DNA of 64,000 nt from Candidatus Poribacteria bacterium (GCA_965214095.1 OZ243938.1:1568001-1632000); one strand, 5' to 3'. Counted from the first letter of the stretch, positions 25,839 through 48,169 are shown. Numbers and translations: made by a program. The notes: generated from the letters alone by a model not told the origin.

Positions 25839-25970
25839 AGCCATTCATGTCAATTCACCGATAGTATATCGGCTGCTGCTGGCATAGTGAACTCACCCAA
25901 CCAACTTCGTAATAAGCATGCTAGACACTTAAACCTCAAACACTTTTTGGCAACAACAGGAGGCACTTTT

Positions 25971-28007: not shown

Positions 28008-28083
28008 CATATATATGCATCAGATTGAACTAAAGTATTCTTTAGTGTCCAAACAAGCTGTAGCAATTGCTGAGGAGATTATT

Positions 28084-30395: not shown

Positions 30396-30478
30396 AAATT
30401 AGCATATATGTGCATCAGATTGAACTAAAATATTCTTTAGTGTCCAAACAAGCCGTAGCAATTGCTGAGGAGATTATT

Positions 30479-32560
30479 ATGCATCATAATCAAAACTATA
30501 ATACGAATCAAATGAAGTCTGATAATACAGATGTGACAACTTGGAAACTTCCTGAAGGTGCGATCGGCAGATTAGCCAGAGGACGCGTGTCAGATATGTC
30601 CTTTTCAACTGATGGTAAATATCTTGCCGTCGCAACCCCCATCGGCTGTTGGTTGTATGATAGATTGTCGCTGAAACCACTTGACTTGTTTGAAACAGAA
30701 AGTGGAATGCTTAATACCATTGTCTTTTCACGCGATACCCGGTTGATTGCCACCAGTAATTTTGATGGCGTAGTGAAGGTATGGGACGTACAAACGCTAA
30801 AGTGTCTCGCAAAGATAAACCATCGCAAGAATATAGATGCAACTTCAGGATATTCTTGGAACCTCCATTTTTCTTGGGACAACGCATACTTAGCAGCATC
30901 TTGTTTTGACAAACAAAATGTTGTCTACGCGTGGCACAAAAACACTGATGAACCTATCACGATATTTCCGATTGACGTAGCAGAAGAGAGCGGACACCAT
31001 TTTCCTATCTGTTTTTCTCCGATAGGGAACTTACTTGCATACGTATCTGCTGGAACACCGCATCACACTCTCACCATTTCCGATATAGAGACCAGTGAAC
31101 ACATCACACATCTCAACTGCATAGCACCATTGGTATACCGAGGTCTTGTCTTTTCTCCTTGTGGGCAATATATAGCTGCTGCTAATCAGAACAATGAAGT
31201 CTTGGTGTGGAATGTTTACAACGACACTTTGGAAATGGAACCCACTACTTATGATGGGAGGAGGTTAATCCCTGCCTATACACCCGATGGCACACTACGC
31301 GTTGCCGATATTTACGACTATAAAGTTGTAATATGGGATGCTATCCGAAAAGAAAAAATAGATACATTTGACCGTCAGAACCCCAGACATGATCATTTTT
31401 TAAGCGGACATCAGGAACATTTTTCAAGCGATGGCTCGTATGTCGCAACGATCCTCTCACGTAGCAATCTTTGTGTGTGGACAGTCGGGTCACCATCAAC
31501 CAAAGTTTCAAGTCCTGCTGATCATAAACCTGTTGCACATTCGGTTGCTTTTTCTAAAAACGGAAAGACATTAGCAAGTGGACATGGGTTTGGTATGTAT
31601 CACGTATTCTGGGATGCTGCACAAAGACAAACAGAACAAATATTCCCAATGCCAAATATCCAAGCACAACGTACAACTCTAACTAAAGACCTAACAGAAG
31701 AAGAGAAACAGCAGTGGTACCGTGTCAGTGCTTTGTCGCCTTGTGGAGAACGACTGACACTTCGCGACCTTCCGAGGGGGTCAGTTGAAATTTGGGATAT
31801 TGCGTCTGAAACCCTCATTACAGAACTATCGGACAGTAACAGATTTAGATCTTGGCGTGAAATGCGTTTTTCACCTACAGGTGAACATTTTATCGGCATA
31901 ACAGCTACAGGTGATATTGATGTCTGGGATACACAGTCCGGTGAGAAAGTCAATACACTCGCAGGAGATAACCGACTGATTTTGACAACTGCGTTTCACC
32001 CTGATGGTAAACAACTCGCTGCAGCACTAACAGAGAGTGCTGGAATGCTTTGGGATATTGACAGCGGTGAACAACTCGGAGTTTTCCCCACAGAACTACC
32101 AGAAGATACCTCCCTCTATAGAGGCGATCCAGAGCAGATACACCAATATATTCAAAAATATAAAAAAAGAAGTGGCTATAAGTGCATCCCTTACAAACTC
32201 GTCTTCTCTCCTTGTGGCACGACGATCGCCTGTGGGATAAAAGATCATATCCAGTTGCGAGACACAGATACCTTAGAAACACAGATGCTCATACTGCTAC
32301 CAAAAACGTGCACCAAACCGTTTGCGCTTACATTTTCCCCCTGCGGAAAATACCTCGTCTCTGGGTCGTGGTGGATAAAGGGATTGGACAAAGTATCCAT
32401 AAGAATATGGGAAGTCGCAACGGGTCAAAATATACACACATTCTGGGGACATACAACAGATGTGCAGGATTTAGCATTTTCACCGGATGGCAAATATCTC
32501 GCAAGTGGCAGTTATGATGGCACCATCCTGTTCTGGGATATGAAACCATTCATCAATTAG
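30479..32560 (+). CDS. WD40 repeat protein, array copy 9
   Basis: Class-B N-terminus; mosaic of copy 11-like and copy 14-like segments. Confidence 0.92.
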   Translation: MHHNQNYNTNQMKSDNTDVTTWKLPEGAIGRLARGRVSDMSFSTDGKYLAVATPIGCWLYDRLSLKPLDLFETESGMLNTIVFSRDTRLIATSNFDGVVKVWDVQTLKCLAKINHRKNIDATSGYSWNLHFSWDNAYLAASCFDKQNVVYAWHKNTDEPITIFPIDVAEESGHHFPICFSPIGNLLAYVSAGTPHHTLTISDIETSEHITHLNCIAPLVYRGLVFSPCGQYIAAANQNNEVLVWNVYNDTLEMEPTTYDGRRLIPAYTPDGTLRVADIYDYKVVIWDAIRKEKIDTFDRQNPRHDHFLSGHQEHFSSDGSYVATILSRSNLCVWTVGSPSTKVSSPADHKPVAHSVAFSKNGKTLASGHGFGMYHVFWDAAQRQTEQIFPMPNIQAQRTTLTKDLTEEEKQQWYRVSALSPCGERLTLRDLPRGSVEIWDIASETLITELSDSNRFRSWREMRFSPTGEHFIGITATGDIDVWDTQSGEKVNTLAGDNRLILTTAFHPDGKQLAAALTESAGMLWDIDSGEQLGVFPTELPEDTSLYRGDPEQIHQYIQKYKKRSGYKCIPYKLVFSPCGTTIACGIKDHIQLRDTDTLETQMLILLPKTCTKPFALTFSPCGKYLVSGSWWIKGLDKVSIRIWEVATGQNIHTFWGHTTDVQDLAFSPDGKYLASGSYDGTILFWDMKPFIN

Positions 32561-32614
32561 TTTATGTGCGTCATGTTGATCTAAACAACTGTAGCAATCG
32601 CTGAGGAGATTATT

Positions 32615-34600
32615 ATGTATCATAAACAAACCTATAATACGAATCAAATGAAATCTGATAATGCAGATGTAACTACCTGGAAACTCCCCGATGGTGCAAT
32701 TGCACGATTAGGACAAGGACTCGTATTTGACATGGCGTTTTCACCGGATAACGCGTCTCTCGCTGTTGCAACTCGCGTCGGGGTATGGATGTATGAACTC
32801 GACACCATGCAGCCCGTCACATTATTTGAAACCGAACGGGGCATGCTTTCTAACGTCGTCCTTTCACCCGATGGAAAATGTGTTGCTACTAGCAACGGGG
32901 ATGGCATTATCAAGGTGCGAGAGATAGAGACCCGGCGGTGTGTTGCGAAAATACGAGGCTGGCACGGAGGCACCTCCCAACTTGCCTTTTCACCGGATAG
33001 CCAATACATCGCCGCATCTGGCCACGGATACGGCGACGTTTACATCTGGTGCGCAAAAACCGGCCAACATGTCGCAAGTTTCAAAGTGGGAGGCACACTG
33101 AAGGAAGGTGAACGCTCTCCTGCCCGTTTCCCAATCTGCTTTTCACCCGATGGGCAGCTGCTCGTTTATGCTTCTGACTGGACCACCCTTACTGTTCGAA
33201 ACCTAAAAACGAAAGAATGCTTTGCTTATCTGCGTCATCTGCGCGAATCAGGGCATGTGTATGATCTCGTCTTTTCACCTTGTAGTCAGTTTCTTGCTGC
33301 GAGTATTCAGGACCCGACGACACGTGAGAACATTGAGGTGCAAGTGTGGAATATTGATAAAGAGATATTGGAGACAACTTATACCGACTACAACGGAACT
33401 CGGGCGATTCTCGCCTATTCCCCTGATGGGGCATTACGGGTGGCAGATGTGTATGAAGACAAGGTAGTGATGTGGAATGCGTCCCGGGGTGAAAAACTTG
33501 ATACCATTGAATATCCACCAGAAATATGTAGAATAGAACAATGTATCTCGACTGATGGACAACAGTTCGCAATTCTCACCAACCGCGATATCCGCGTGTG
33601 GCGTGCAGGCTCCCCTGCCATAGTAGCACCGCTCACAGTGCCTAATCAGGTGCCAGAATCTCTGTTTTTTTATCAAACGGACAGGATGCTGGTTTGCCAA
33701 CACTGGTATGCAGATACCGTTTTCTGGGATGTTGTCCAGAAACAGGTGTCACCTCCCCCGACTCCACAAAAGAGCGGAGGTAAAAGGTGTGCGCTGTCCC
33801 CTTGTGAAGAATTGTTGGTTCTCATCGGAGAAGGCGGTCAAACTCTTGAAGTCTGGAACATTGTGTCCGGAACCCAGATAGCGGAACTCACCGGACATCA
33901 AAGTTTTATCACCACCGTAGTGTTTTCACCCGCAGGGGAACACCTCATCAGCGGTGATGTAGATGGGAAACTTGTTGTGTGGCGTGTCCAACGTTGGGAA
34001 AAGCAGCATGCATTTATAGGGCATGCTGAGCCGCTTCGGACAGCAGCCTTTCACCCCAACGGACAGCAATTCGCTACTACTGACGGGTATGGTATATTTC
34101 TTTGGGACGTTACGAGTGGTGAACAGCTTGGCTCACCTTCTGTAGACTCCACCTTTGTTACCCTATATAAAGGAGATATGCGACGAATCCAGAGACAAAC
34201 CCAGCCACGTAACAAACTGCCAAAGAATCTCCATTCAATTGCGTTTTCACCTTGTGGCACTTTTTTGGCTGCTGGATTATACGGTGGAGTTCATCTATGG
34301 GATGCTATAACTTTGGAGCCGCACATGGGGATGATTCTACCTGAGAGTTGCTCCCTTGTCGGTGTCGTTGTGTTTTCTCCATGTGGTCGGTATCTTGCCT
34401 CCGGTTCTTGGTGGAACAAAACAGACAAAGTCTCTATCCGTTTATGGGAAGTTGCCACTGGGGAAAACATCCATACCTTCTGGGGGCATACTTCAGATGT
34501 ACAAAATCTCGCTTTCTCAAAGGATGGCGAACTTCTGGCAAGTAGCAGCTATGATGGCACTATTTTATTGTGGGATATGAAACCGTTTATTAACACTTAA
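32615..34600 (+). CDS. WD40 repeat protein, array copy 10
   Basis: Class-B N-terminus; core related to copy 5. Confidence 0.92.
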   Translation: MYHKQTYNTNQMKSDNADVTTWKLPDGAIARLGQGLVFDMAFSPDNASLAVATRVGVWMYELDTMQPVTLFETERGMLSNVVLSPDGKCVATSNGDGIIKVREIETRRCVAKIRGWHGGTSQLAFSPDSQYIAASGHGYGDVYIWCAKTGQHVASFKVGGTLKEGERSPARFPICFSPDGQLLVYASDWTTLTVRNLKTKECFAYLRHLRESGHVYDLVFSPCSQFLAASIQDPTTRENIEVQVWNIDKEILETTYTDYNGTRAILAYSPDGALRVADVYEDKVVMWNASRGEKLDTIEYPPEICRIEQCISTDGQQFAILTNRDIRVWRAGSPAIVAPLTVPNQVPESLFFYQTDRMLVCQHWYADTVFWDVVQKQVSPPPTPQKSGGKRCALSPCEELLVLIGEGGQTLEVWNIVSGTQIAELTGHQSFITTVVFSPAGEHLISGDVDGKLVVWRVQRWEKQHAFIGHAEPLRTAAFHPNGQQFATTDGYGIFLWDVTSGEQLGSPSVDSTFVTLYKGDMRRIQRQTQPRNKLPKNLHSIAFSPCGTFLAAGLYGGVHLWDAITLEPHMGMILPESCSLVGVVVFSPCGRYLASGSWWNKTDKVSIRLWEVATGENIHTFWGHTSDVQNLAFSKDGELLASSSYDGTILLWDMKPFINT

Positions 34601-34699
34601 ATATTTCTCGTAAATTCTCTTGGTCAATTTCATATAATACCTTGACGCACGAGGTTATTGAATACTGAACGTCTATTAGTAATAAAAGGAGACATCTTC

Positions 34700-36763
34700 T
34701 TGGAAAAGAGAATACATACAACCCCCTCATTTAGACCTATTGACGACACAGATGTAACAACTTGGAAACTACCTGAAGGTGCAATCGGCAGATTGGCACG
34801 TGGACGGGTGTCAGATATGTCCTTTTCAGTTGATGGTAAATATCTTGCTGTCGCAACCCCTATCGGTTGTTGGTTGTATGATCGATCATCCCTGAAACCA
34901 CTCGACTTGTTCGAAACAGAATGCGGTATGCTTGATTCCATTGTCTTTTCACACGACACCCAATTCATTGCTACAAGTAATAAAGATGGTGTTCTAAAGA
35001 TATGGGATACACAAACGCTAAAGTGCCTCGCAAAGATAAACCATCGCAAGAATGTAGATGCAACTTCAGGATATTTTTGGAACCTCCATTTTTCTCGGGA
35101 CAACGCATACTTAGCAGCATCTTGTTTTGACAAACAAAATGTTGTCTACGCGTGGCACAAAAACACTGATGAACCTGCGATTTACTTCCCAATTGACTTA
35201 GAAAAAGAAAGTGGACACGACTTTCCTATCTGTTTCTCTCCGATAGGGAATCTACTTGCATACGTGTCTGCTGGAACCCCGCAGAACACTCTCACCATTT
35301 CCGATATAGAGACTAATGAACACATCACACATCTCAACTGTATAGCACCATTGGTATACCGAGGTCTTGTCTTTTCTCCTTGTGGACAATATATAGCTGC
35401 TATCAATCTGAACAATGAGATGTTGGTGTGGAATGTTCACAACGGCACTTTGGAAACGGAACCCACTACTTATAATGGGAGGAGGTTAATCCCTGCCTAT
35501 ACACCCGATGGCACACTACGCGTTGCCGATATTTACGACTATAAAGTTGTAATATGGGATGCTATCCGAAAAGAAATAATGGATACCTTTAAATGTCAGA
35601 ACCGCTGGCATGATCATTTTTCATCCGATGGTGCACACATCGCAACGATCCTCTCGCGCAGCGATCTCTGTGTGTGGACAGTCGGGTCACCGTCAACAAA
35701 AGTTACAAGTCCTGCTGATCATAAACCTGTTCCATATTCGGTTGTTTTTTTTAAAAAAGGTAAAACATTAACAAGTCCAGAAATGTTTGGTGCACAGCTC
35801 GTTTGTTGGAATGTTGCACAGAGGCAAACAGAACAGATTTTCCCAACGCTGAGGATGCAGGCACAGTACACGACTCAAACTAAAAATCTCACAACGGAAG
35901 AAAGACAGGATTTGTTCCGAGTCAGCACATTGTCTCCTTGTGGAAAACGACTAGCACTTTGCAAACTTCCGAGGGGTTCAATTGAAATCTGGGACATTAC
36001 GTCTGAAACACTCATTATAAAACTCTCGGACAGTAGAGGATTTGACGCCGCAATGTGTTTTTCACCTTCTAATAAACATCTCATCGGCACAGCACCTACG
36101 GGCGGTACAGGAGACATCGGTGTATGGGATACACAGTCTGGGAAGAAAGTTAATATGCTCACAGGACATACGAATTATATTTTAACAGTAGCTTTCCATC
36201 CAAGCGGTAAACGACTCGCAACCGTCGCCAAGGATAGAACAGCAAGGCTCTGGGATATTGACAGCGGTGAACAACTCGGAGTTTTCCCCACAGAACTACC
36301 AGAAGATACCTCCCTCTATAGAGGCGATCCAGAGCAGATACACCAATATATTCAAAAATATAAAAAAAGAAGTGGCTATAAGTGCATCCCTTATAAACTC
36401 GTCTTCTCTCCTTGTGGCACAACGATCGCCTGTGGGATAAAAGATCATATCCAGTTGCGAGACACAGATACCTTAGAGACACAGATGCTCATACTGCTAC
36501 CAAAAACGTGCACCAAACCGTTTGCGCTTACATTTTCCCCCTGCGGAAAATACCTCGTCTCTGGGTCGTGGTGGATAAAGGGATTGGACAAAGTATCCAT
36601 AAGAATATGGGAAGTCGCAACGGGTCAAAATATACACACATTCTGGGGACATACAACAGATGTACAGGATTTAGCATTTTCACCGGATGGCAAATATCTC
36701 GCAAGTAGCAGTTATGATGGCACCATACTCCTCTGGGATATGAAACCTATTATATGCACCTAA
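34700..36763 (+). CDS. WD40 repeat protein, array copy 11
   Basis: AAGGAG RBS, TTG start; class-A N-terminus; core related to copies 9 and 14. Confidence 0.92.
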   Translation: MEKRIHTTPSFRPIDDTDVTTWKLPEGAIGRLARGRVSDMSFSVDGKYLAVATPIGCWLYDRSSLKPLDLFETECGMLDSIVFSHDTQFIATSNKDGVLKIWDTQTLKCLAKINHRKNVDATSGYFWNLHFSRDNAYLAASCFDKQNVVYAWHKNTDEPAIYFPIDLEKESGHDFPICFSPIGNLLAYVSAGTPQNTLTISDIETNEHITHLNCIAPLVYRGLVFSPCGQYIAAINLNNEMLVWNVHNGTLETEPTTYNGRRLIPAYTPDGTLRVADIYDYKVVIWDAIRKEIMDTFKCQNRWHDHFSSDGAHIATILSRSDLCVWTVGSPSTKVTSPADHKPVPYSVVFFKKGKTLTSPEMFGAQLVCWNVAQRQTEQIFPTLRMQAQYTTQTKNLTTEERQDLFRVSTLSPCGKRLALCKLPRGSIEIWDITSETLIIKLSDSRGFDAAMCFSPSNKHLIGTAPTGGTGDIGVWDTQSGKKVNMLTGHTNYILTVAFHPSGKRLATVAKDRTARLWDIDSGEQLGVFPTELPEDTSLYRGDPEQIHQYIQKYKKRSGYKCIPYKLVFSPCGTTIACGIKDHIQLRDTDTLETQMLILLPKTCTKPFALTFSPCGKYLVSGSWWIKGLDKVSIRIWEVATGQNIHTFWGHTTDVQDLAFSPDGKYLASSSYDGTILLWDMKPIICT

Positions 36764-36795
36764 AACAACTGATAAAAAATAACTTGGAGGTTTCC

Positions 36796-39000
36796 ATGGA
36801 TAATCAACGATCACAAACACCCACACAAATACCCCAAACAAACGCAGATATTACCACTTGGTCTCTCCCTGAGGGTGCAATTGCACGTTTAGGGCGCGGT
36901 CGTAACCGTGGTGGTCTAACATTTTCACCTGATGGTGATTCTCTTGTTGTTGCGACAGACATCGGGTGTTGGTTGTATGACCTTGATACGCTGACGCCGA
37001 GTGCGTTATGGGCAACAGAACGGGGGATGGTTTCTGCCATCTCCTTTTCTCATAATGGGAAGTGGATTGCTACCACCAACTGGGACGGCATCGTGAAGAT
37101 ATGGGACACACAAACCTTACGCTGCATTTCCCAAATAGAACCACCTTGGCATCCTAATACATATGTAGATTTTTCATCAGATGGGCAGCACTTAGCTCTG
37201 GTTGGTAGTACACAAACTTCTGCATGGACAGCTGTTTACGACTGGCACTTGAACACAACTACGCCTATCATAAACTTAGATTTTACGCTGAAACCACAGG
37301 TATACTCTGCAGTCTCAACAGCTTTTTCCATTAATGGTAATTTATTTGCGTATACGTCCGACTACAATATGACATCTGTGATGCACATGGAGACAGGGGA
37401 GATCATAGCGAAATTTACTGACACATATACCGATGACACATATACCAAAGGTCCTATTTTAGGGACCACCAACTTAGTTTTTTCACCTTGTGGAGAGTTC
37501 CTTGCGGGTTGTAATAAAAAGGACACGGTTCATGTATGGAATATCCAAAGCGGGAACTTTACGATGGAACCGACAACTTATCATCAGAGCACTCGGGTAC
37601 TGCCGACCTACCTATCTGATGGCACATTACGGGTTGCTGCGCGTCATCCAAAAGAAATAATCATCTGGGATACGAAGTCGCAGGAGAAGGTGGACTCCAT
37701 TGCATATTCGGGAGGGATCTTCTGGGCAACGTGCTTTTCAGTTGATGGTAGAAAGTTCGCAATCGCCAGTAGATACGATGATCTTAAGCTCTGGTGTGAA
37801 GGTTGTTCCTCAAAAGTCGTATCTCTGACTGAACATCTACATCCGGACCCTGTCCAAAGGTTCCCGAGCACACTGGATTTTTCTAAGGACAGTCGGACAC
37901 TTTTCTGTGGATACTGGAAACACATCGGACACCTTGCTTGGGATGTTTCGAAGCACCAAATAGCACGGACATTTCCGTCACATTCACATGAATATTCGGC
38001 ACATCCCGATATGCCTTTCACGATGTCACACAATGCGGAACTGATAGCTACTGCAAACGGCATGGACAGCCCCATTAAAGTTTGGGATATAGCGTCAAAT
38101 ACGCAAGTTGCAGAGTTCCTCGAATCTTCATGGCAAGTGTGCTGGCTGACTTTTTCTTCAACAGCAGAATATCTTCTGAGTAGCATGAATAGAGACGCAG
38201 CCAAGGTTTGGGATGTAGAATCTGGCACGCAAGTCGCAGAACTTACTGAGAAGGATAACTTAATGGAGAAAGGGTTCAAGATGAAAATGTTTTCTCCGAC
38301 AGATGAATATATACTCGGTATCAGTAAGGATCGTATCAGCGTGTGGGATGCCTTGAAGTGGGAACATCTTTATGAAACTCACCTCAAGGGTTTTAACAGG
38401 TCAAGGAGAGAGGGAGTATTTAAGTTTGGGACACCGTTGAGGTTTCATCCAGACGGTCAGCATTTCATCACTGCTGGATACGAAAAGGATGCTTTTGTCT
38501 GGGACCTCAAATGCGGTGAACAAGTGGGTTCACTTCACACAGAAAAATGTTTAGATACAACCCTCTATAGAGGTGAGCCACAAGATATCCAGCGTCTCCG
38601 CGAACAACAGAATGCGGACTCTCGACGTATCCGTGGAATTGAAACATCCCCCTGCGGCACTTTTATTGCTGGCGCAATGCATAACGAAATTAGGGTATGG
38701 GACGCTGCTACCTTACAAACCCAAATAGCAATCATACCATCCATTGGCTGTCAGAAGTCTTATATAATAGTGTTTTCACCTTGCAGCAAGTATCTGGCAA
38801 CAGGTGCGTGGTGGCAAGAGGGACAAACAAAAATGTCTATCAGGTTGTGGAATATCATTACAGGTGATAATATTGCCACTTTTTGGGCACACACGACTGA
38901 TGTTGATAAACTTGCGTTTTCACCGGATGGCAAATATCTCGCAAGCGGTAGTTATGATGGTACTATCCTCGTCTGGGATATGAAACCATTTATAAATTAG
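36796..39000 (+). CDS. WD40 repeat protein, array copy 12
   Basis: GGAGG RBS before ATG 36796; core related to copy 13. Confidence 0.92.
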   Translation: MDNQRSQTPTQIPQTNADITTWSLPEGAIARLGRGRNRGGLTFSPDGDSLVVATDIGCWLYDLDTLTPSALWATERGMVSAISFSHNGKWIATTNWDGIVKIWDTQTLRCISQIEPPWHPNTYVDFSSDGQHLALVGSTQTSAWTAVYDWHLNTTTPIINLDFTLKPQVYSAVSTAFSINGNLFAYTSDYNMTSVMHMETGEIIAKFTDTYTDDTYTKGPILGTTNLVFSPCGEFLAGCNKKDTVHVWNIQSGNFTMEPTTYHQSTRVLPTYLSDGTLRVAARHPKEIIIWDTKSQEKVDSIAYSGGIFWATCFSVDGRKFAIASRYDDLKLWCEGCSSKVVSLTEHLHPDPVQRFPSTLDFSKDSRTLFCGYWKHIGHLAWDVSKHQIARTFPSHSHEYSAHPDMPFTMSHNAELIATANGMDSPIKVWDIASNTQVAEFLESSWQVCWLTFSSTAEYLLSSMNRDAAKVWDVESGTQVAELTEKDNLMEKGFKMKMFSPTDEYILGISKDRISVWDALKWEHLYETHLKGFNRSRREGVFKFGTPLRFHPDGQHFITAGYEKDAFVWDLKCGEQVGSLHTEKCLDTTLYRGEPQDIQRLREQQNADSRRIRGIETSPCGTFIAGAMHNEIRVWDAATLQTQIAIIPSIGCQKSYIIVFSPCSKYLATGAWWQEGQTKMSIRLWNIITGDNIATFWAHTTDVDKLAFSPDGKYLASGSYDGTILVWDMKPFIN

Positions 39001-39057
39001 TTTATATGTGCGTCATGTTGATACAAACAAGCAGTAGCAATTGTTGAGGAGATTATT

Positions 39058-41244
39058 ATGCAACATAAACAAACCTATAATACGAATCAAATAAAATCTG
39101 ATAATACAGATGTAACAACTTGGCACCTTCCCGATGGAGCAATTGCACGGTTAGGACGAGGTCGTATCCGTGGGGGTCTAACATTTTCACCTGATGGTAA
39201 TTCTCTTGTTGTTGCGACAGACATCGGGTGTTGGTTGTATGACCTTGAAACATTAACACCACGGGCATTGTGGAATACAGAACGAGGGATGGTTTCTGCC
39301 ATCTCCTTTTCTCATAATGGGAAGTGGATTGCTATCGGAAATATGCACGGCACCGTGAAGGTATGTGACACACAAACCTTACAATCCATTGCAATAATAG
39401 AAACGAACCGACTTGTTACACGTATTAATATTTCTCCGAGTGGACAGCACTTGGCAATTGCTACAGTAGCTGGTGGCGTTCAAACTACTATTTATGCTTG
39501 TCGTCCTCATATCAGTACACCGATTGCAAACTTTGCTTTAACGCAAGAACAACGGGTAAAATGTACAACATCAATAGCATTTTCGCCTAATGGCTGCCTA
39601 TTTGCTTACACGTCTGACATCAATAAAACATCTGTGATATATGTAGAGACAGGAGAAATCATCGCGGAACTTCACGATACGTATACCACGTATACCGAAG
39701 AACCTGGTGGATGTACGAAATTGGTTTTTTCACCGTGTGGTAAGTTCCTTGCGGGGTGTAATAAGAAGGACACGGTTCATGTCTGGGATATCCAAAGCGG
39801 TAACTTCGCAATAGAACCGACAACCTATCATCAGAGCACTCGCGTGCTGCCGACTTATCTATCTGATGGTACCCTAAAGGTTGCAGCGTGTTATCGCAAA
39901 GAGGTAATATTCTGGGATACAAAGTTACAACAGAAGATGGATGCTTTTGAATATATAGGGAGCGAAGGTGGGGCAACGTGCTTTTCAGTTGATGGTAGAA
40001 AGTTCGCAATTGCCAGTAAATACGACGATCTTAAGGTCTGGTGTGAAGGTTCTCCCTCAAAAGTCGTATCTTTACCTGAACATCTACATCCCGACCCTGT
40101 GCAAAGGTTCCCGAATATACTGGATTTTTCTAAAGACAGTCGGACGCTTTTCTGTGGATATTGGAAACACACCGGGTACCTCGCTTGGGATGTTTCGAAG
40201 CACCAAATAGCACGGACATTTCCGTCACATTCACGCGGATATTCGGCACATCCCGAAATGCCTTTCACGATGTCACACAATGCGGAACTGATAGCTACAG
40301 CAAACGGAACGGACAGTCCCATTAGTGTTTGGAATGTAGTCTCAAACACGCAAGTGGCAGAGTTCCTCAAATCTTCACGGCAAGTGTGCTGGCTAACGTT
40401 ATCTCCAAAAGGAGAATATCTTGTGGGTAGCATGAAGGGAGACGCAGCCAAGGTATGGGATGTAGAATCTGGCACGCAAATCACAGAACTTACAGAGAAG
40501 GATACTTCGTTGACGAAAGGAGTCAGAATGAAGATGTTTTCCCCGACAGGTGAATATATACTCGGTATCGGTAAGGATCGTATCAGCGTGTGGGATGCCT
40601 TGAAGTGGGAACATCTTTATGAAACTCGCCTCAAAGAGTTTAACCGGTCCAGGAGAGACGGAGTGTTTAAGCTTGGGACACCGTTGAGGTTTCATCCAGA
40701 CGGTCAGCATTTCTTCACTGCTGGATACGAAGTGGGTGCTTATGTGTGGGAACTCAAAAACGGTGAACAAGTGGGGACACTACCCACAGAAATATGCATA
40801 GATACAACCCTATATAGAGGAGATCCACAGAACATCCAGCTGGTCCGTAAACAGCAGGAAACGACCCGTCGCGTCCGACAACTTGAGGTATCTCTTTGCG
40901 GTACTATTATTGCTGGCGCAATGCAAAACGAAATTAGGGTATGGGATGCAGCCACACTACAAACAAAAATGGTGATAATACCTCCGAAAGGATGTCAAAA
41001 ACCTTTCACCTTAGCCTTTTCACCGTGTAGTCAATATCTTGCTGCTGGCGTATGGTGGCAACACGGACAAATAAGAATGTCTATCCGGGTATGGAATATC
41101 ACTACTGGTGAAAATATTACTACCTTCTGGGCACATCCTACCGATATCGATAGACTTAGGTTTTCACCGGATGGCAAATATCTCGCAAGTGGCAGTTATG
41201 ATGGCACCATCCTGCTCTGGGATATGAAACCATTTATAAATTAG
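39058..41244 (+). CDS. WD40 repeat protein, array copy 13
   Basis: Class-B N-terminus; core related to copy 12. Confidence 0.92.
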   Translation: MQHKQTYNTNQIKSDNTDVTTWHLPDGAIARLGRGRIRGGLTFSPDGNSLVVATDIGCWLYDLETLTPRALWNTERGMVSAISFSHNGKWIAIGNMHGTVKVCDTQTLQSIAIIETNRLVTRINISPSGQHLAIATVAGGVQTTIYACRPHISTPIANFALTQEQRVKCTTSIAFSPNGCLFAYTSDINKTSVIYVETGEIIAELHDTYTTYTEEPGGCTKLVFSPCGKFLAGCNKKDTVHVWDIQSGNFAIEPTTYHQSTRVLPTYLSDGTLKVAACYRKEVIFWDTKLQQKMDAFEYIGSEGGATCFSVDGRKFAIASKYDDLKVWCEGSPSKVVSLPEHLHPDPVQRFPNILDFSKDSRTLFCGYWKHTGYLAWDVSKHQIARTFPSHSRGYSAHPEMPFTMSHNAELIATANGTDSPISVWNVVSNTQVAEFLKSSRQVCWLTLSPKGEYLVGSMKGDAAKVWDVESGTQITELTEKDTSLTKGVRMKMFSPTGEYILGIGKDRISVWDALKWEHLYETRLKEFNRSRRDGVFKLGTPLRFHPDGQHFFTAGYEVGAYVWELKNGEQVGTLPTEICIDTTLYRGDPQNIQLVRKQQETTRRVRQLEVSLCGTIIAGAMQNEIRVWDAATLQTKMVIIPPKGCQKPFTLAFSPCSQYLAAGVWWQHGQIRMSIRVWNITTGENITTFWAHPTDIDRLRFSPDGKYLASGSYDGTILLWDMKPFIN

Positions 41245-41301
41245 TTTATATGTGTGTCATGTTGAGCTAAACAAACTGCAGCAATTGCTGAGGAGATTAT
41301 T

Positions 41302-43386
41302 ATGCATCATATTCAAACCTATAATACGAATCAAATGAAATCTGATAATACAGATGTAACAACATGGGAACTACCTGAAGGTGCAATCGACAGATTAGCA
41401 AGGGGACGGGTGTCGGATATGTCATTTTCAACTGATGGTAAGTATCTTGCCGTCGCAACGCCGATCGGTTGTTGGTTGTATGATAGATTGTCGCTGAAAA
41501 CGATCGCGTTATTTGATACAGAAAGTGGAATGCTTAATACCATTGCCTTTTCACCCGACACCCAGTTCATTGCTACCAGTAATAAAGATGGTGTTTTAAA
41601 GGTATGGGATACACAAACGCTAAAGTGTCTTGCAAAGATAAACCATCGCAAGAATGTAGATGCAGCTTCAGGATATTTTTCGAAGCTCTGCTTTTCTCAA
41701 GATAACCAATACTTAGCCGCATCCTGTTTTGATAAACAAAATGTTGTCTACGCATGGCAACAAAACACTGATAAACCTATGATCTGTTTACCGATTGATG
41801 TAGAAGAAACGAAGGGACACAGCTTTCCCATCTGTTTCTCACCTAATGGGTATCTACTCGCGTATGTGTCTTCTGTATCTCTCCAGAACACTGTAACGAT
41901 TTCCGATATTGAAACCGGTGAACACATCACACATCTTAGCCAATCCTCGGCACTGTCTACATACCGTTTTTCCCCTTGCGGACAATATATAGCAGCTGCT
42001 AATCGGAACAATGAAGTGTTGGTATGGAATGTTCACAACGGCACTTTGGAAACGGAACCAACAGCGTATGATGGAAAGTGGTTAAGCATTGCCTATACAC
42101 CTTATGGCATACTACGCGTTGCCGATATTTACGACTATAAAGTTGTGATTTGGGATGCTATCTCAAAAGAAAAAATAGATACCTTTGAACGCGATAAACC
42201 CAGGTCTGATCATTTTTTAAGCGGACATCATTTACACTTTTCATCCGGTGGCGCACACATCGCAACGATCCTCTCGCGCAGTAAGCTCTGTGTGTGGACG
42301 GTCGGGGCACCATCAAGTAAAGTTTCAAGTCCTGCTGATCATAAACCTGTTGTCCACGCGGTTGCTTTTTCTAAAGACGGAAAGACATTAGCAAGTAGAT
42401 ATGCGTGGGGTATGTATCACGTATTCTGGGATGCTACACAGCGACAAACAGAACAAATATTCCCAACGCCAAATATCCAAGCACAACGCACAGCTCTAAC
42501 TAAAGACCTAACAGAAGAAGAGAAAAAGCAGTGGTACCGTGTCAGTGCCTTGTCACCTTGTAGGGAACGACTGGCACTTCGCGACCTTCCGAGAGGGTCA
42601 GTTGAAATTTGGGATATTGCGTCTGAAACCCTTATTACAGAACTCTCGGACAGTAAGAAATTTAGATCTTGGCGTGAAATGCGTTTTTCACCGACAGGTG
42701 AACGTTTTATCGATACAGCACCGACAGGTGATATTGATGTCTGGGATACACAGTCTGGTGAGAAAGTCAATACACTCGCAGGAGATAACCGACTGATTTT
42801 GACAACTGCGTTTCACCCTGATGGTAAACAACTCGCTGCTGCACCAAAAGGGAGTGCTGGAATGCTTTGGGATATTGACAGCGGTGAACAACTCGGAGTG
42901 TTCCCTACAGAACTGCCAGAAGATACCTCCCTCTATAGAGGCGATCCAGAGCAGATACACCAATATATTCAAAAATATAAAAAAATAATCAAGCAATATA
43001 AGTGTATCCCTTACAAACTCGCCTTCTCTCCTTGTGGCACGATGATCGCCTGTGGGATACAAGATCATATCCGGTTGCGAAATACAGCAACCTTAGAAAC
43101 GCACATGCTTATACTACCACCCGAAACGTGTAGCAGACCGTTTGCACTCACATTTTCCCCCTGCGGAAAATACCTCGTCTCTGGGTCGTGGTGGATAAAG
43201 GGGTTGGACAAAGTATCCATAAGAATATGGGAAGTCGCAACGGGTCAAAATATACACACATTCTGGGGACATACAACAGATGTGCAGGATTTAGCATTTT
43301 CACCGGATGGCAAATATCTCGCAAGTAGCAGTTATGATGGCACCATACTCCTCTGGGATATGAAACCTTTTACCGGTTCAGATTGA
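41302..43386 (+). CDS. WD40 repeat protein, array copy 14
   Basis: Class-B N-terminus; core related to copies 9 and 11. Confidence 0.92.
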   Translation: MHHIQTYNTNQMKSDNTDVTTWELPEGAIDRLARGRVSDMSFSTDGKYLAVATPIGCWLYDRLSLKTIALFDTESGMLNTIAFSPDTQFIATSNKDGVLKVWDTQTLKCLAKINHRKNVDAASGYFSKLCFSQDNQYLAASCFDKQNVVYAWQQNTDKPMICLPIDVEETKGHSFPICFSPNGYLLAYVSSVSLQNTVTISDIETGEHITHLSQSSALSTYRFSPCGQYIAAANRNNEVLVWNVHNGTLETEPTAYDGKWLSIAYTPYGILRVADIYDYKVVIWDAISKEKIDTFERDKPRSDHFLSGHHLHFSSGGAHIATILSRSKLCVWTVGAPSSKVSSPADHKPVVHAVAFSKDGKTLASRYAWGMYHVFWDATQRQTEQIFPTPNIQAQRTALTKDLTEEEKKQWYRVSALSPCRERLALRDLPRGSVEIWDIASETLITELSDSKKFRSWREMRFSPTGERFIDTAPTGDIDVWDTQSGEKVNTLAGDNRLILTTAFHPDGKQLAAAPKGSAGMLWDIDSGEQLGVFPTELPEDTSLYRGDPEQIHQYIQKYKKIIKQYKCIPYKLAFSPCGTMIACGIQDHIRLRNTATLETHMLILPPETCSRPFALTFSPCGKYLVSGSWWIKGLDKVSIRIWEVATGQNIHTFWGHTTDVQDLAFSPDGKYLASSSYDGTILLWDMKPFTGSD

Positions 43387-43459: not shown

Positions 43460-44737
43460 ATGATCATGTCAAACATTTCAGATGAACAATTGGTAGTCGC
43501 CGCGGCAAAAGGTGATACCAATGCAATGGAAAACATAAAAGAAAGAGCAATATTTGGAAAATACGGCATACGCAAATGTCTTAAGAAGATGGGATGTACT
43601 GATAAAGAAATATCTCTGCTGGAACCCAAAATAGTCCAGATTTTGTTGGCTTCCATACCCAAATATGAATTCACTGCTCCGTTTTTTGTATACGGATACC
43701 GTCTTGCGGTAAATTATTCTCTCCAATATAAGGAAAACAGGGAAGTTCTACTGTTTGACAAACGGATACATAAGGAAAAAGCATGCCCAAATACACTGCG
43801 GACATTGAGCGACACTCTTGGAAAACCTAAGCATCCGCCGCTTGAACAAATTGACCTTGAGATTCGGACACTTGTGAGTTTACTGAATCAATCACCTGAC
43901 ATTAAAACATCCGGTTCCTCTTGTAGTGGACATCCAGATCAGGAAGAATGGAAAAACGGGAAATGGTCTCAATTTGGAGGATATATTGGGATCATACCAA
44001 TGAGTTCCCCGGACAAGGCATTGGATTTTCTCAACGGTATACTGAAGAAGTTAGATAATTCTAACACACAGACCAAGAATAGATTTTTACCAGCAGACCT
44101 ACAGCAAACAAAGAGTACACTGAATGAAAACATCACTTTCACTGACGCAATTCGCGCACGATACAAGCAAGTAGACGCTGAGGATTTGTTCTGCTCAGAT
44201 GCCCCCGTTGTCTTGATAAACGTTTCATTCCGTTTTTATGTGTGCCATAGCCATGCAAAGCATTCTTTAGAAATCTGGAAACAACTCATCGCGCGTATAA
44301 AAGAGTTGATCCCAGAAGACAGGGAGCTTACTGCTGAAGTTGACACGCCAGAGAAGGCAATGCAGCTATTGCAAAAAGCATTACACCGGTTACCCTTCCT
44401 ATTTAGTGCCACACTTACGACAAGTCAGGAAGGATATCCCGGAATAGTCTTGACTACTGTAGCAGACCTCGCTTTATTACAGTGGTTTTCAACATTAGCC
44501 GATAGGCTGCATGAATGTCTTGATAATGCAGGATATGTAAGTTCTCGCTATACAGAAGATGAAATACCATATGCTGAAAAGTGGTCTTTCACGTTGAGAC
44601 CATTTCTAAACCAAGAATGCATACCGTTACCGCATCTGTTAGCACCGCAGTGGGAACCACGCACTCGTGAAGACCATCTGAAGATTTGGAAACTCCTTGA
44701 GTTAACAGTGGCAGAACAAGTTGAATGTGAAATTTAG
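43460..44737 (+). CDS. hypothetical protein: sigma-70 region 2-like N-terminus fused to a TYW3-like domain
   Basis: SDEQLVVAAAKGDTNAME...FFVYGYRLAVNYSLQY (ECF sigma2-like), then IDLEIRTLVSLLNQSPDIKTSGSSCSGH; no region 4 HTH seen. Confidence 0.6.
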   Translation: MIMSNISDEQLVVAAAKGDTNAMENIKERAIFGKYGIRKCLKKMGCTDKEISLLEPKIVQILLASIPKYEFTAPFFVYGYRLAVNYSLQYKENREVLLFDKRIHKEKACPNTLRTLSDTLGKPKHPPLEQIDLEIRTLVSLLNQSPDIKTSGSSCSGHPDQEEWKNGKWSQFGGYIGIIPMSSPDKALDFLNGILKKLDNSNTQTKNRFLPADLQQTKSTLNENITFTDAIRARYKQVDAEDLFCSDAPVVLINVSFRFYVCHSHAKHSLEIWKQLIARIKELIPEDRELTAEVDTPEKAMQLLQKALHRLPFLFSATLTTSQEGYPGIVLTTVADLALLQWFSTLADRLHECLDNAGYVSSRYTEDEIPYAEKWSFTLRPFLNQECIPLPHLLAPQWEPRTREDHLKIWKLLELTVAEQVECEI

Positions 44738-44861
44738 AGCATTTACCAGTAATCTATATTAAAATGTAATAAGTAAACACCTCGCTATAGAAAATGAAGA
44801 CTAAAAACATTTTGGGGTGATCCACTCAACAATCGTCAAATTGACATTTAGGAGGATTTTT

Positions 44862-46139
44862 ATGTTGTCAAACATTTCAGAGCAAAGATTGATAGTTGCA
44901 GCGGTGAAAGAAGGTGATTCCAATGCATTGGAAGAACTAAAAGAACGTCTAATTTCTGGACAATACGGTATACGCCCTATAATTAATAGAATTCCATGTG
45001 CAGATGCCGACAGAAAAATACTTGAACAACATATTGTGGAGAATATCATCAATGATTTGCATGCACATGGGTTCAGAGGGTCTATCCAGACATCTGGATT
45101 CCGTCTCGCTACCCATTTTGCTATCCAATATAGGAATAATAACGACTTTAGACTTTCTGACCTAGACAGTCCGAAAGAGAAAGTAGTGCTGACTGCAAAC
45201 AATGATCCTGAAGAACCTAAGCACCCTCCACTGGAGGAAATTGACCTTGAGATTCGGACACTTGTGAGTTTACTGAATCAATCACCTGATATTAAAACAT
45301 CCGGTTCTTGTAGTGGACATCCACAATGGCAACCCGATAAATGGACTCAGTATGGAGGCTATCTTGGGATCAGACCTATCAGTTCTCCGCGTAAAACTTT
45401 AGATTTTCTTGTTGGTATGCTGATGCAGTTAGATAATACAGGCACGCCAACCAATAATGCATACTTGCCAGCTGCGCTGCAAGTAGAGGATAGCACACGG
45501 AATGATAACACCATTTCTGTCGAAGCAATTCGTGAGCGATATAAGCAAGCTGACGCGGAGAATTTATACTGTTCCGGTGCGCCTATTGTCCTTATAGGTG
45601 TTTATTTTCGTTTCTATGTTTGTCATCGTGAAGAAAGCCACTCTTTAGAAATCTGGAAACAACTCATCGCACGTATAAAAGAGTTGATCCCAGAAGACGG
45701 AGAGCTTACTGCCGAAGTTGACACGCCAGAGATGGCAATGCAGCTATTACAAAAAGCATTACACCGGTTACCCTTCCTATTTAGTGCCACACTTACGACA
45801 AGTCAGGAAGGATATCCCGGTATTATCTTGCACACAGTAGCAGACCTTTCATTATTCCAATGGTTTTGTGCATTAACCGACAAACTACATGAGCAGCTTG
45901 GCAAAGCAGGATATGTAAGTTCTCGCGATACAGAAGATGAAATACCATATGCTGAAAAGTGGTCTTTCACGTTGAGACCATTTCTAAATCAAGAATGCAT
46001 ACCGTTACCGCATCTGTTAGCGCCGCAGTGGGAACCACGCACTCGTGAAGACCATCTGAAGATTTGGAAACTCCTTGAGTTGGCAGTTGCAGAACAACTT
46101 AAGTCTGAGGGTATTACATTAAAAACTGAAAATACGTAG
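44862..46139 (+). CDS. paralogue of 43460-44737 (degenerate sigma2-like plus TYW3-like)
   Basis: AGGAGG RBS; SEQRLIVAAVKEGDSNALE...; identical IDLEIRTLVSLLNQSPDIKTSG block; near-identical C-terminal third. Confidence 0.6.
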   Translation: MLSNISEQRLIVAAVKEGDSNALEELKERLISGQYGIRPIINRIPCADADRKILEQHIVENIINDLHAHGFRGSIQTSGFRLATHFAIQYRNNNDFRLSDLDSPKEKVVLTANNDPEEPKHPPLEEIDLEIRTLVSLLNQSPDIKTSGSCSGHPQWQPDKWTQYGGYLGIRPISSPRKTLDFLVGMLMQLDNTGTPTNNAYLPAALQVEDSTRNDNTISVEAIRERYKQADAENLYCSGAPIVLIGVYFRFYVCHREESHSLEIWKQLIARIKELIPEDGELTAEVDTPEMAMQLLQKALHRLPFLFSATLTTSQEGYPGIILHTVADLSLFQWFCALTDKLHEQLGKAGYVSSRDTEDEIPYAEKWSFTLRPFLNQECIPLPHLLAPQWEPRTREDHLKIWKLLELAVAEQLKSEGITLKTENT

Positions 46140-46285
46140 TGTATCTCATAAATCATTATAGGACGAGGTTTTGTGCTTCATCCTATCCTGGGAAAAAGAC
46201 AATGGACGGGCACAGAGACTCGCCTCTACGATTTAAGGTAATGTGGTATTATTTCATTTCAAACTGTTTTTATGGTGTGTTTAAT

Positions 46286-48169
46286 ATGCAAAACAAAGAT
46301 TTCACACAGAACTATCCTGAAGAAAACCTTATCTCTTTACCATCCGAGGCGATCGCTCGATTCGGTAGGGGTGATGTAGAAGGTACTGCCATCTCCCCCG
46401 ATGGAAATATGATTGCAGTAGCATCCCGTATTGGTTTGTGGATTTATAATGCTCATACTGAAGATTTCATAAGGCTAATTGCGGTAGAAGGCACAGGTCT
46501 ACTTTCAAGGGTTACTTTTTCTCCAGATAGCACACAGGTTGCTACAGGCGATTGGGATGGCATTGCATCACTATGGGATGTTTCTACTGGAGCAAAACTC
46601 GCAACCTTCAAGAATAAAGATTATGTCATTTCCATTGCTTTTTCTCCAGATGGAAAATCCTTGGCAACTGGAACACGGGATGGTAAAGCAACACTGTGGG
46701 ATATTAACACTGGTAATGAACGTTGGTCGATTTCTCACAAAGATTATGTCACTTCCGTTGCTTTTTCTCCAGACGGTTTACTTTTAGCAACAGGTAGTCG
46801 GGATAGTACATCAAATCTATGTGATGTTGAGAATGGAGAAGTTCAACGGTGTTTCACCCATCAGAAACATAGTGTAGATATTGAATTAGATACCGGGTTC
46901 GTTGAGACCTTTAACAATCTCGGAATCAATTGCATTGCCTTTTCTCCAAATGGACGATATTTTGCCACAGGTGACCGTATCGGAGCTGATATAAAGGGTG
47001 TTACAACATTGTGGGATATTGAAAGCGGGGAGGCTGTGTGGGAATTTGCCCATGAGGACTCTGCGACATCAATTGCTTTTTCAACAGACAATAAATACAT
47101 GGCAACTCGCTTTTCCAATGGAGACACCGATGTTCGTCATATTGCCGATTGCACAACGGCATCAATTCAAGAAGGAAATTGGGCAAAACAGAAAAAGAAA
47201 CCGCCAGCAAGTCATCCACGAGGATTATACGGCTGGCTCGTTAACTTTTCACCAGACGGAAAGCACTTGGCTGCCGTAACACAAATGTCTTCCCTTAAGA
47301 TATGGGATTTAGCATCTGGGATAAACATCAAGACAATTGACCAAGATATTGGACAAGCAGAAGCACTATCTTATGCACACGATGGATATTGCTTTGGAGT
47401 GAGCCGATCATCCAAAGGTGAGACCTCTTGGAATTGTGCGACCTTTTGGAAAGATCAGGAACAAAATATTGACTTTCGGCCTGAAGATCCAAATGCAGAC
47501 ATTTTATCCGCCGCTGTTTCACCTGATACCGAAATTGTGGCTACAGGAGGAGATGATAAAAAAGTTTATTTATGGGATAGAGCAACACAAAAATTGGTTA
47601 ACACACTTTCTGGACATACTGGACCAATAATTAACCTTGCATTCTCCCCTAATGGCACACACTTAGTAAGCACAGGAGGCATTGAAGTGGAAAGACAAGA
47701 AAAAGATGGAACCGTGTATTCTTACCCACTGGAGGATGGTGCGGCAGATCAGACAGCAAGAGTTTGGCATATTGAAACAGGTACTGAGGTCGCAACGCTC
47801 ACGCATCGCTTCAAAGTTGAGACGCTTGTTTTCTCACCAGATAGTACTTGCCTTGCAACTGCCTCTGGGGAAGATGTCCATCTGTGGGATACTAAGACGT
47901 GGCTGAAAATTGTAACACTTGAGACAGTAAGAGTTGAGTCGCTCGGATTTTCGGCGGATGGTTCGCTACTTGCCGTTGGTGGTACAGGACGGAAGCCAAA
48001 GATACAGATATGGAATGTGAAAACAGCACAACTGATTGTAGAATTCTCTGGTCACAAGAGTGATGTGGAATCTGTTGCCTTCTCACCAGATGGCACACTA
48101 TTGGCAAGCGGAGGTTTTGATAGTGTCATCTACTTATGGGATATGAAATCTATTACAGAATTAGATTGA
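46286..48169 (+). CDS. WD40 repeat protein, divergent copy 15
   Basis: LPSEAIARFGRG N-terminus, regular AFSPDG..LATG..D...LWD blades, terminal WDMK. Confidence 0.9.
   Translation: MQNKDFTQNYPEENLISLPSEAIARFGRGDVEGTAISPDGNMIAVASRIGLWIYNAHTEDFIRLIAVEGTGLLSRVTFSPDSTQVATGDWDGIASLWDVSTGAKLATFKNKDYVISIAFSPDGKSLATGTRDGKATLWDINTGNERWSISHKDYVTSVAFSPDGLLLATGSRDSTSNLCDVENGEVQRCFTHQKHSVDIELDTGFVETFNNLGINCIAFSPNGRYFATGDRIGADIKGVTTLWDIESGEAVWEFAHEDSATSIAFSTDNKYMATRFSNGDTDVRHIADCTTASIQEGNWAKQKKKPPASHPRGLYGWLVNFSPDGKHLAAVTQMSSLKIWDLASGINIKTIDQDIGQAEALSYAHDGYCFGVSRSSKGETSWNCATFWKDQEQNIDFRPEDPNADILSAAVSPDTEIVATGGDDKKVYLWDRATQKLVNTLSGHTGPIINLAFSPNGTHLVSTGGIEVERQEKDGTVYSYPLEDGAADQTARVWHIETGTEVATLTHRFKVETLVFSPDSTCLATASGEDVHLWDTKTWLKIVTLETVRVESLGFSADGSLLAVGGTGRKPKIQIWNVKTAQLIVEFSGHKSDVESVAFSPDGTLLASGGFDSVIYLWDMKSITELD

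Follow-up and report, generated by a model that had tools for sequence, protein, structure and literature searches.

Tandem genes joining an ECF-type sigma region-2 domain to a TYW3-like module in a WD40 gene array of Candidatus Poribacteria

Sigma-factor domains in non-sigma roles are rare, and the textbook case is PhyR, whose sigma-like part is made of sigma-2- and sigma-4-like halves and whose sensor is a receiver domain. RsoA is a small protein that works with a sigma-4-bearing partner encoded alongside it. The TYW3/Taw3 fold has, to our knowledge, so far been tied to one archaeal/eukaryotic tRNA reaction. Here we describe two tandem genes on the same strand of a 64,000-nt stretch of Candidatus Poribacteria DNA (the window), from an uncultured bacterium of the sponge-symbiont type, paralogues A and B, each coding for a soluble protein of 425 amino acids (aa) that consists of a sigma region-2 (sigma-2) domain (aa 2-95), a floppy linker of about 30 aa and a module of about 300 aa, the latter very probably an enlarged, divergent relative of the TYW3/Taw3 fold by remote homology. 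Both parts are known folds; neither this fusion nor the family of the module is described in the literature searched, in which no mention was found of a TYW3-like domain outside tRNA enzymes.

In the PhyR-NepR-EcfG system of Alphaproteobacteria a non-working sigma-like domain is fused to a signal-receiving domain (PMC4551977, PMC4814048), an arrangement that resembles A and B; these differ in carrying sigma-2 only, in having a TYW3-fold module for a sensor with no Response_reg match in Pfam, and in that no NepR-like anti-sigma was found. RsoA, from the SigO-RsoA pair, likewise has sigma region-2-like sequence only (PMC7826278), but no sigma-4 partner gene lies at the A/B locus and the large C-terminal module has no counterpart in RsoA. 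The extracytoplasmic function (ECF) sigmas of the ECF57 type, known from Planctomycetes, bear a WD40 C-terminal extension and thus also associate an ECF sigma domain with a WD40 propeller (PMC8999054, PMC7826278); in contrast, the sigma-like domain of A and B lacks sigma-4 and is fused to the TYW3-fold module instead of WD40. TYW3/Taw3 proteins are defined by the motif (S/T)xSSCxGR together with an Asp and a His that are both invariant, on a fold composed of an N-terminal extension, RAGNYA and SHS2; the motif Arg is required for function, and Taw3, which binds S-adenosylmethionine (SAM), carries a basic patch proposed for tRNA. Currie et al. 2017 counted them as a 'ninth class' of SAM methyltransferases (PMC5311493).

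The N-terminal domain of A and B is a true ECF-type sigma region-2 domain. Its profile aligned with that of the ECF sigmas of the same genome over 90 columns (residues 5-97 against ECF 11-105) with a probability of 98.2% and an E-value of 4.4e-14 (hhalign), and the profile of the 53-member family reached sigmaE region-2 structures of the PDB over residues 4-86 (best E 5.2e-4). The AlphaFold2 model of full-length A (predicted local distance difference test, pLDDT, 84.7; predicted template modelling score, pTM, 0.85) has five helices at 8-93. When it was compared with 48,161 chains using VIA-align, sigma factors occupied ranks 1-32 with ECF sigmas on top, the Z-scores at ranks 1-18 running from 11.6 to 8.1; the best matches were SigK (4nqw_A; Z 11.6, root-mean-square deviation (rmsd) 1.8, 84 residues aligned), SigW (Z 11.2) and sigmaE region 2 (Z 11.1). 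The domain thus has the fold of ECF (group 4) sigma-2 (4nqw, 5wuq, 2mao/1or7; Z 11.6-11.1, rmsd 1.8-3.0), with homology over regions 2.1-2.4, and the F..W..RI..N segment is kept in the family. Foldseek gave a template modelling score (TM) of 0.69 by target and an rmsd of 2.5-2.7 to sigmaE region 2, with an E-value that was not supportive.

Other searches were largely silent on this domain: Pfam returned no N-domain match in A or B at E<=1, its Sigma70_r2 profile matched one of the 53 family members at E<=0.01, and BLASTP of the N-domain against the ECF sigma of the locus gave nothing significant (E 0.5). The N-domain profile, run over the 15,299 open reading frames (ORFs) of the same genome, found 15 further ORFs at E<=0.01 and reached genuine ECF sigmas at E 5e-9 to 1e-6. 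Among the best 10 of these 15, seven are complete proteins with both sigma-2 and sigma-4 (563 aa in one case, 185-212 aa in the other six), another is an ORF of 112 aa with sigma-2 only, and the remaining two are WD40 proteins (~790 aa).

Three features set A and B apart from ECF sigmas, namely the lack of sigma-4, the lack of the acidic sigma-2.2 motif, and the unrelated 300-aa module that follows sigma-2. No Sigma70_r4 match was found by Pfam in A, B or the 53 members, and residues 128-425 form an alpha/beta module, so that the initial annotation of this locus, made from the sequence alone, was right to propose an ECF sigma2-like N-terminus without sigma4. The acidic 'DAED' residues of ECF sigmas, usually needed for binding of the RNA polymerase (RNAP) beta' subunit (PMC8999054), are not kept; in one profile alignment the motif falls on a gap, E50, I51 and S52 of A, and the family consensus reads i-k-x-L-E.

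The C-terminal module was modelled by itself with AlphaFold2 (25 sequences; pLDDT 82.9, pTM 0.83) and this model was searched against the same 48,161 chains. The four Taw3/TYW3 structures took ranks 1-4, namely 2qg3_B (Z 7.1, rmsd 3.6, 122 aligned), 2drv_A (6.6), 1tlj_B (6.3) and 2dvk_A (5.7), and the next, unrelated chain had Z 5.1; with the full-length model 2qg3_B, 2drv_A and 1tlj_B were seen again at Z 5.7-5.9. These Z-scores of 5.7-7.1 lie below 8, in the range where the tool warns of a common arrangement. The predicted folds of A match both families named in the initial annotation, sigma-2 and, modestly, TYW3. Foldseek with the module model gave nothing at E<=0.001 in the PDB and no Taw3 chain among the matches listed, structure comparison within its 999 chains gave no Z>=5, and a BFVD search with the module returned nothing. 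Residues 136-261 of the module model resemble the ferredoxin-like ABM, ACT and MscS-C domains at Z 3.3-4.9. A single-sequence search against the PDB had 0 matches, NCBIfam gave noise only for A and B (E >= 0.018), and PADLOC had no match in A, B or their relatives P0108 and P0109. A language-model search of the ESM Atlas (feature scores <=0.86) yielded leads only, among them the SAM-binding fold of 8qa4_A, in which two antiparallel sheets are said to lie next to each other against a layer of helices (PMC11701544); its score was 0.83-0.84 and its Z to the module 4.1, but this match is far weaker than that of Taw3 (rmsd 6.9) and has no motif in common, leaving it a lead only.

The sequence motif leads to the same family. 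The annotation had noted a stretch ID.EI..LV..LN..P...T...CSGH as recalling TYW3/Taw3, with His in the place of Arg, and its core (I131, E134, L138, L142, N143, I148, T150, S154, C155, S156, G157, H158 and P159) proved invariant in all 53 members, within an alignment that has 29 invariant columns. D132 is conserved at 0.98 in the 53 sequences and aligned with the Asp of 2qg3_A, and its spacing to C155 is 23 residues, the same as from D25 to C48 in SsTaw3. The Pfam TYW3 profile (PF02676) matches this very stretch with its positions 14-48 of 211, at 17.1 bits in A and 19.3 in B, below the gathering cut-off of 27 bits; in the genome scan the pair scored 18.1 and 20.1 bits and were the sole TYW3 matches of the genome. 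The same profile matches 47 of the 53 members at E<=0.01 (best 5.8e-7). The family profile also aligned with residues 31-60 of the Taw3 homologue AF_2059 (2qg3_A), where Asp, Asn, Thr and SSCSG coincide, at weak E-values of 0.069, 1.3 and 0.12 in three PDB profile searches. Since the motif and the structure search are independent and point to one small family, the TYW3 link is credible.

The module and TYW3/Taw3 (2qg3, 2drv, 1tlj, 2dvk) have in common an N-terminal helix with the Asp, a strand and the (S/T)xSSCxG loop at equal spacing. They differ in that only about 120 residues superpose, at Z 5.7-7.1, and in that the module has an invariant His for the Arg, is ~300 aa long against ~190-210, carries an extra RTREDHLKIW helix, is acidic (isoelectric point, pI, 4.7-6.2) and is encoded in a bacterial genome without the TYW1 marker. 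The His replaces the TYW3 Arg in all 53 members and 13 of the 14 distant relatives, with T-x-S-S-C-S-G present before it. No invariant His follows the Cys by about 25 residues, at the place of H73; invariant or near-invariant His residues stand instead at H158, H263, H392 and H406. In the last helix R401, H406 and W410 are invariant in the 53 members; R401, R403 and W410 occur in 14 of 14 distant relatives and H406 in 13 of 14, and the RTREDHLKIW signature is kept even at 24-33% identity among relatives. That the module also shares the TYW3/Taw3 function is highly improbable. The TYW1 marker PF08608 (Wyosine_form) has no match in the genome, which is 94.5% complete, and was positive in three archaea with the same profile; because no TYW1 marker was found, the proteins are not considered wybutosine enzymes.

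An internal duplication of the TYW3-like domain had also been proposed. The repeat is real but weak: the halves 125-288 and 289-425 are distantly homologous, aligning collinearly over 109 columns (probability 51%, E 1.5e-4) in a single hhalign comparison based on a 121-sequence alignment, and both follow the order helix-strand-strand-helix-(helix)-strand-helix in the model. With the 53-sequence alignment, the HSLEIWKQ/DHLKIWKL helix alone was aligned between the halves (E 0.023, probability 2%). The degenerate repeat thus stands, but not as two TYW3 domains; the Taw3 structures extend in the alignment over the entire module (1..305 of the 308 model residues), so both halves make up one TYW3-like fold.

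The family is of narrow distribution. A word-indexed search found 107 clusters, full-length or fragmentary, and the six names that bear an organism (6/6) are all Candidatus Poribacteria, hypothetical protein; an exhaustive HMMER search of 1.84 billion representatives gave 31 proteins at E<=0.001. Of 176 Poribacteria genomes, 26 carry the gene at full length (best E <= 1e-156), 13 of the 40 from the genus of the window and 13 of the 65 from one sister genus, and one further genome of the 176 has fragments only. The sigma-like domain gives matches in 176 of 176 genomes of the phylum, via ordinary ECF sigmas, and truncated N-domain remnants with stop codons are present in some of them. A pattern scan of one genome per species (185,579 species) found 22 loci, all in records titled Poribacteria; metagenome contigs yielded one locus and viral contigs no family member.

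Distant relatives carry the module in other settings: it stands alone in P0108, P0117, P0120, P0121 and P0130, lies behind two Clp_N repeats in P0109, P0116, P0118, P0122, P0129 and P0131, and in P0123 precedes a sigma-2-like domain (aa 279-353, E 4e-13), so that the order is reversed. P0131 comes from a metagenome-assembled genome labelled Promethearchaeota. Longer fused forms (798-2275 aa) were not found, which is weak evidence. The database entries retrieved for the sigma-2-fused family are unnamed or named 'hypothetical protein', and the one named Clp_N-fused relative is labelled by its Clp_N domain alone. Upstream of one Clp_N-fused relative (L081:1593-2900; 3.3 kb recovered) is a gene that looks like a radical-SAM/B12-type enzyme.

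Genomic context was counted at 16 loci from 15 of the 26 genomes with full-length genes, long contigs being preferred. A WD40 paralogue directly adjoins the fusion gene on the same strand in 14 of the 16, often on both sides, which agrees with the linkage to WD40 arrays proposed at the outset. The genome itself (5.2 Mb) has 118 ORFs like the array WD40 proteins (E<1e-20) in 55 clusters, the largest being the 15-gene array of the window and the second largest a 13-gene cluster at 868507-896096. At 118 such ORFs per 5.2 Mb, the adjacency is far above the expectation from gene density, with the qualification that orthologous loci are not independent. Orthologues of the 15th WD40 gene, 69-92% identical, lie directly downstream of a fusion gene at three loci (L027, L031 and L033), and the array is headed by an ECF sigma both here and at L026 (84% identical ECF sigma).

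Sigma-2-like domains related to the N-domain were also observed in other arrangements, the short-ORF and ECF-appended forms matching its profile at E 1e-24 to 1e-33. ORFs of 102-124 aa that are sigma-2-like only (E 1e-29 to 1e-33) were found at L051:3128-3451 (-), L057:2907-3215 (-) and L052:3263-3637 (-), those of L051 and L057 (two of the three) just downstream of a WD40 gene; some such stretches are probably remnants of fusion genes without the module, because similar stretches elsewhere carry stop codons. A second sigma-2-like domain, at the C-terminus, is borne by complete ECF sigmas (about 310 and 544 aa) at L053:3536-4468 (-), L054:2645-3580 (+) and L055:2385-4019 (+), all beside WD40 genes; the extra domain is close kin of the A/B N-domain and is labelled HTH_16 by Pfam in L054 and faintly in L053. 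A fusion of ECF and WD40 occurs in Poribacteria at L056. In the 13-gene WD40 cluster of the genome, two WD40 proteins of ~790 aa (C1:885939-888335 (-) and 888713-891064 (-)) match the sigma-2-like profile at E 5.6e-5 and 1.9e-4, which makes them candidate sigma-WD40 fusions resembling ECF57. Elsewhere in the genome an ECF sigma gene (4009569-4010207) is directly followed by a WD40 gene (4010250-4012166).

The A and B proteins are 66% identical (278/424; BLASTP E 0.0), consistent with the tandem paralogues first annotated. The ORF of B spans 44817-46139 (+) and opens at a GTG at 44817, the ATG at 44862 being the likely start that gives 425 aa. DNA identity between A and B is a mosaic, ~48-58% at aa 30-105 and 84-98% at aa 120-150, 255-320 and 345-405; divergence between the paralogues is hence greatest in the N-terminal domain, while much of the C-terminal part is near-identical, the pattern described in the initial annotation. 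The N-domain tree sets the A-type genes of three to four genomes apart from the B-type genes, each type in a clade of its own (support 100/99 and 99/97), and in the module tree the B gene of this genome and of its closest relative shifts beside the A-type clade (89/91), which suggests partial gene conversion between A and B. Contigs of the best-matching sequencing runs, which may come from the source sample, cover the stretch mismatch-free and end where its blocks are repeated. Among the 20 sequencing runs listed for the stretch none is of RNA. In another run, from a sponge metagenome, a related population is represented by contigs in which A continues in register into B (43466->44866 and 44008->45387, skipping 1399 and 1378 bases), so a single hybrid copy is present there and copy number is polymorphic by unequal recombination. 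Taken with the trees, the tiling contigs and hybrid joins indicate that A and B are a real, recombining tandem duplication.

Codon comparisons indicate that both parts are maintained under purifying selection, the sigma-like part evolving about twice as fast: eight pairwise comparisons, with dS reaching about 1.2, gave a ratio of non-synonymous to synonymous substitution rates (dN/dS) of 0.17-0.35 for the module; for the N-domain, whose dS was computable in seven of the pairs, the ratio was 0.46-0.74. Reading frames were intact in all 19 genes examined. Genes of G159, G094 and G132 had been flagged as broken ('1 TGA inside'); translation of these three gave intact ORFs in which the TGA is the terminal stop. 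A second copy, in G084, carries the flag '2 TGA'.

We tentatively propose, with a probability of roughly 40%, that A and B are sigma-mimic regulators of ECF-sigma/WD40 cassettes, with the TYW3-fold module as a ligand-binding head. The sigma-2-like domain alone would be unable to direct transcription, and would instead dock on a protein that normally binds sigma-2; a WD40 propeller in the role of an anti-sigma-like partner is the most plausible candidate. The module would bind a small molecule (a SAM-like ligand is a guess) or carry out a reaction, and in this way set the availability of the decoy, following the logic of a PhyR-type partner switch with another sensor head, in the setting of signalling cassettes specific to Poribacteria. 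The fast-evolving N-domain could then provide partner specificity, and the module, homogenised by gene conversion, a common output or sensor. The mimic reading is favoured because the sigma-like domain lacks both sigma-4 and the beta'-contact motif and tracks WD40 genes across several architectures, because the module behaves as an exchangeable head that is also joined to the protein-docking domain Clp_N and occurs in either order, and because its invariant polar cluster and Taw3 kinship fit a small-molecule site. The residues of the candidate site are D132, E134, R136, N143, T150, S154, C155, S156, H158, N200, R401 and H406. The pTM of 0.85 for the full-length model against 0.83 for the module alone gives a weak hint that the N-domain and the module are docked in the prediction. 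The loss of 'DAED' and the acidic module speak somewhat against direct contact with RNAP or RNA, the contact implied by the RNAP-binding decoy or RNA-acting effector that the initial annotation had put forward.

Several points weigh against this proposal. Two of the 16 loci, L028 and L029 (genomes G172 and G159), have intact genes that are not beside WD40 genes; the module tree places these two with each other, and an STT3-like gene follows one of them. The sole Clp_N-fused context recovered (3.3 kb) has no WD40 gene either. No anti-sigma factor was identified in the locus, the binding of sigma-2 domains by WD40 proteins is inferred from gene order and fusions, and the loss of 'DAED' was read from a single profile alignment. 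The TYW3 similarity is modest in Z-score, was missed by Foldseek and has only the above weak E-values in the PDB profile comparison, and the strict conservation of the TYW3-like catalytic motif is no less compatible with an enzyme than with a sensor.

If the sigma-like domain does bind propellers, the WD40 arrays would be transcription-signalling hardware rather than host-interaction proteins. As a conserved, selected bacterial family that joins a sigma-2 domain to a TYW3-like fold, A and B offer a handle on the abundant "eukaryote-like" WD40 arrays of sponge symbionts, and their module, its signature altered by His in the place of Arg and by the added RTREDHLKIW, would mark a new branch of the TYW3 fold in bacteria.

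The best-surviving alternative, which we consider unlikely, is an enzyme docked on RNAP, where the sigma-2-like domain would sit on the beta' clamp helices and place a TYW3-fold transferase there to modify nascent RNA, promoter DNA or the polymerase. That beta' is the canonical sigma-2 partner agrees with it, as do the TYW3 Asp and SSCSG kept at identical spacing, the rank of Taw3 as best structural match and a polar cluster that looks catalytic; yet the Arg required in TYW3 is His in every member, the acidic sigma-2.2 motif is lost, and the acidic module contrasts with the basic patch of Taw3 (PMC5311493). Moreover, a module that is also found alone or fused to Clp_N does not have RNAP as its general address.

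Somewhat less probable is an enzyme or adaptor directed at proteins, for which the N-terminal domains (sigma-2-like or Clp_N) would be swappable recruiting handles and the targets would be the neighbouring WD40 proteins or the ECF sigma. The exchange of the N-terminus between two types of protein-binding domain, the tight WD40 linkage and the acidity of the module are all in line with this, but PADLOC, NCBIfam and Pfam gave no further hint. We know of no protein-modifying activity for the TYW3 fold, and PMC5311493 mentions none. A bolder reading, slightly less probable than either of these alternatives, is that the sigma-2 handle parks a TYW3-fold transferase on RNAP or on a sigma-binding hub and so brings SAM-type chemistry to the transcription machinery; if true, a sigma domain would here direct an enzyme to its place of action for modification during transcription, an arrangement undescribed for sigma-family proteins.

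An unconventional or split sigma is improbable. The sigma-2-like domain would then initiate transcription, either together with a separate sigma-4 partner on the model of SigO-RsoA or with the module in the place of sigma-4; split ECF-type sigmas do exist (PMC7826278) and the sigma-2 fold is well preserved, including F..W..RI..N. Against this, there is no sigma-4-only gene beside the fusions, whose neighbours are WD40 genes, the beta'-binding motif is degenerate, the N-domain evolves fast, and in relatives the order is reversed (P0123) or Clp_N takes the place of the sigma-2-like domain. A functionless by-product of recombination in a fast-reshuffling gene array is very improbable, as the mosaic gene conversion, the hybrid copy, the patchy presence (26/176 genomes) and the truncated N-domain remnants that would suit it are outweighed by the intact genes, by the low dN/dS of the module at dS up to about 1.2, and by the 29 invariant columns and the motifs kept in distant relatives.

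Coordinates of A, B and the surrounding array are collected in Table 1.

Table 1. Features of the two fusion genes and their WD40 array, in nucleotide positions of the window.
Feature	Position	Strand	Basis
Paralogue A, coding sequence: sigma-2-like domain, linker, putative TYW3-fold module	43460..44737	+	ORF list; GGAGGA before ATG; AlphaFold2 model
A aa 1-95, ECF-type sigma-2 domain, no sigma-4 after it	43460..43744	+	hhalign, VIA-align, Foldseek
A aa 96-127, variable low-confidence linker	43745..43840	+	pLDDT <50 at 115-121; alignment gappy and variable
A aa 128-288, first half of module (helices H, strands E: H133-142, E148-155, E175-180, H184-198, H223-237, E251-261, H266-283)	43841..44323	+	Model, hhalign
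A aa 131-159, ID.EIR.LV.LLN..P.I.T..SCSGHP, TYW3-like Asp and (S/T)xSSCxG, His158 for Arg	43850..43936	+	Invariant columns, Pfam TYW3, 2qg3_A alignment
A aa 289-425, degenerate second half (H297-309, E314-321, E327-335, H337-356, E371-381, H403-424)	44324..44734	+	hhalign, model
A aa 401-410, RTREDHLKIW, superfamily-wide signature opening the last helix	44660..44689	+	Invariant columns
Paralogue B, coding sequence, architecture as A	44862..46139	+	Likely start ATG 44862 behind AGGAGGA; Pfam TYW3 19.3 bits, aa 119-152
B aa 127-154, equal Asp and SCSGHP motif	45240..45323	+	Invariant alignment columns
Complete ECF sigma factor (sigma-2 and sigma-4), head of array	12371..12991	+	Pfam Sigma70_r2 1.3e-12, Sigma70_r4_2 1.6e-7; TIGR02937 5.4e-27
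Fourteen WD40 double-propeller paralogues upstream of A	13104..43386	+	ORF list; Pfam WD40 for first and last; short intergenic gaps
15th WD40 gene, directly downstream of B	46139..48169	+	Pfam

The regions upstream of A and B showed no conspicuous promoter-like motif in common, and promoters and terminators were no more numerous than in shuffled sequences. Directly upstream of the ECF sigma gene, the window has a complete 16S rRNA gene at 10390-11940 (+; 1543 bits) and a tRNA gene at 12061-12134 (+); as there is no 23S rRNA gene in the window, the rRNA genes look unlinked. The window opens within a Type ISP restriction-modification enzyme, whose C-terminal 854 aa are encoded at 3-2567 (+) (Type_ISP_C 1.6e-89, N6_Mtase). 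Downstream of the array, 52813-54096 (+) encodes a protein of 427 aa that consists of three DUF5069 repeats (2.2e-81), and its neighbours are of the sugar-metabolism type, including a GFO/IDH/MocA oxidoreductase, a xylose-isomerase-like TIM barrel and a PMT_2 glycosyltransferase.

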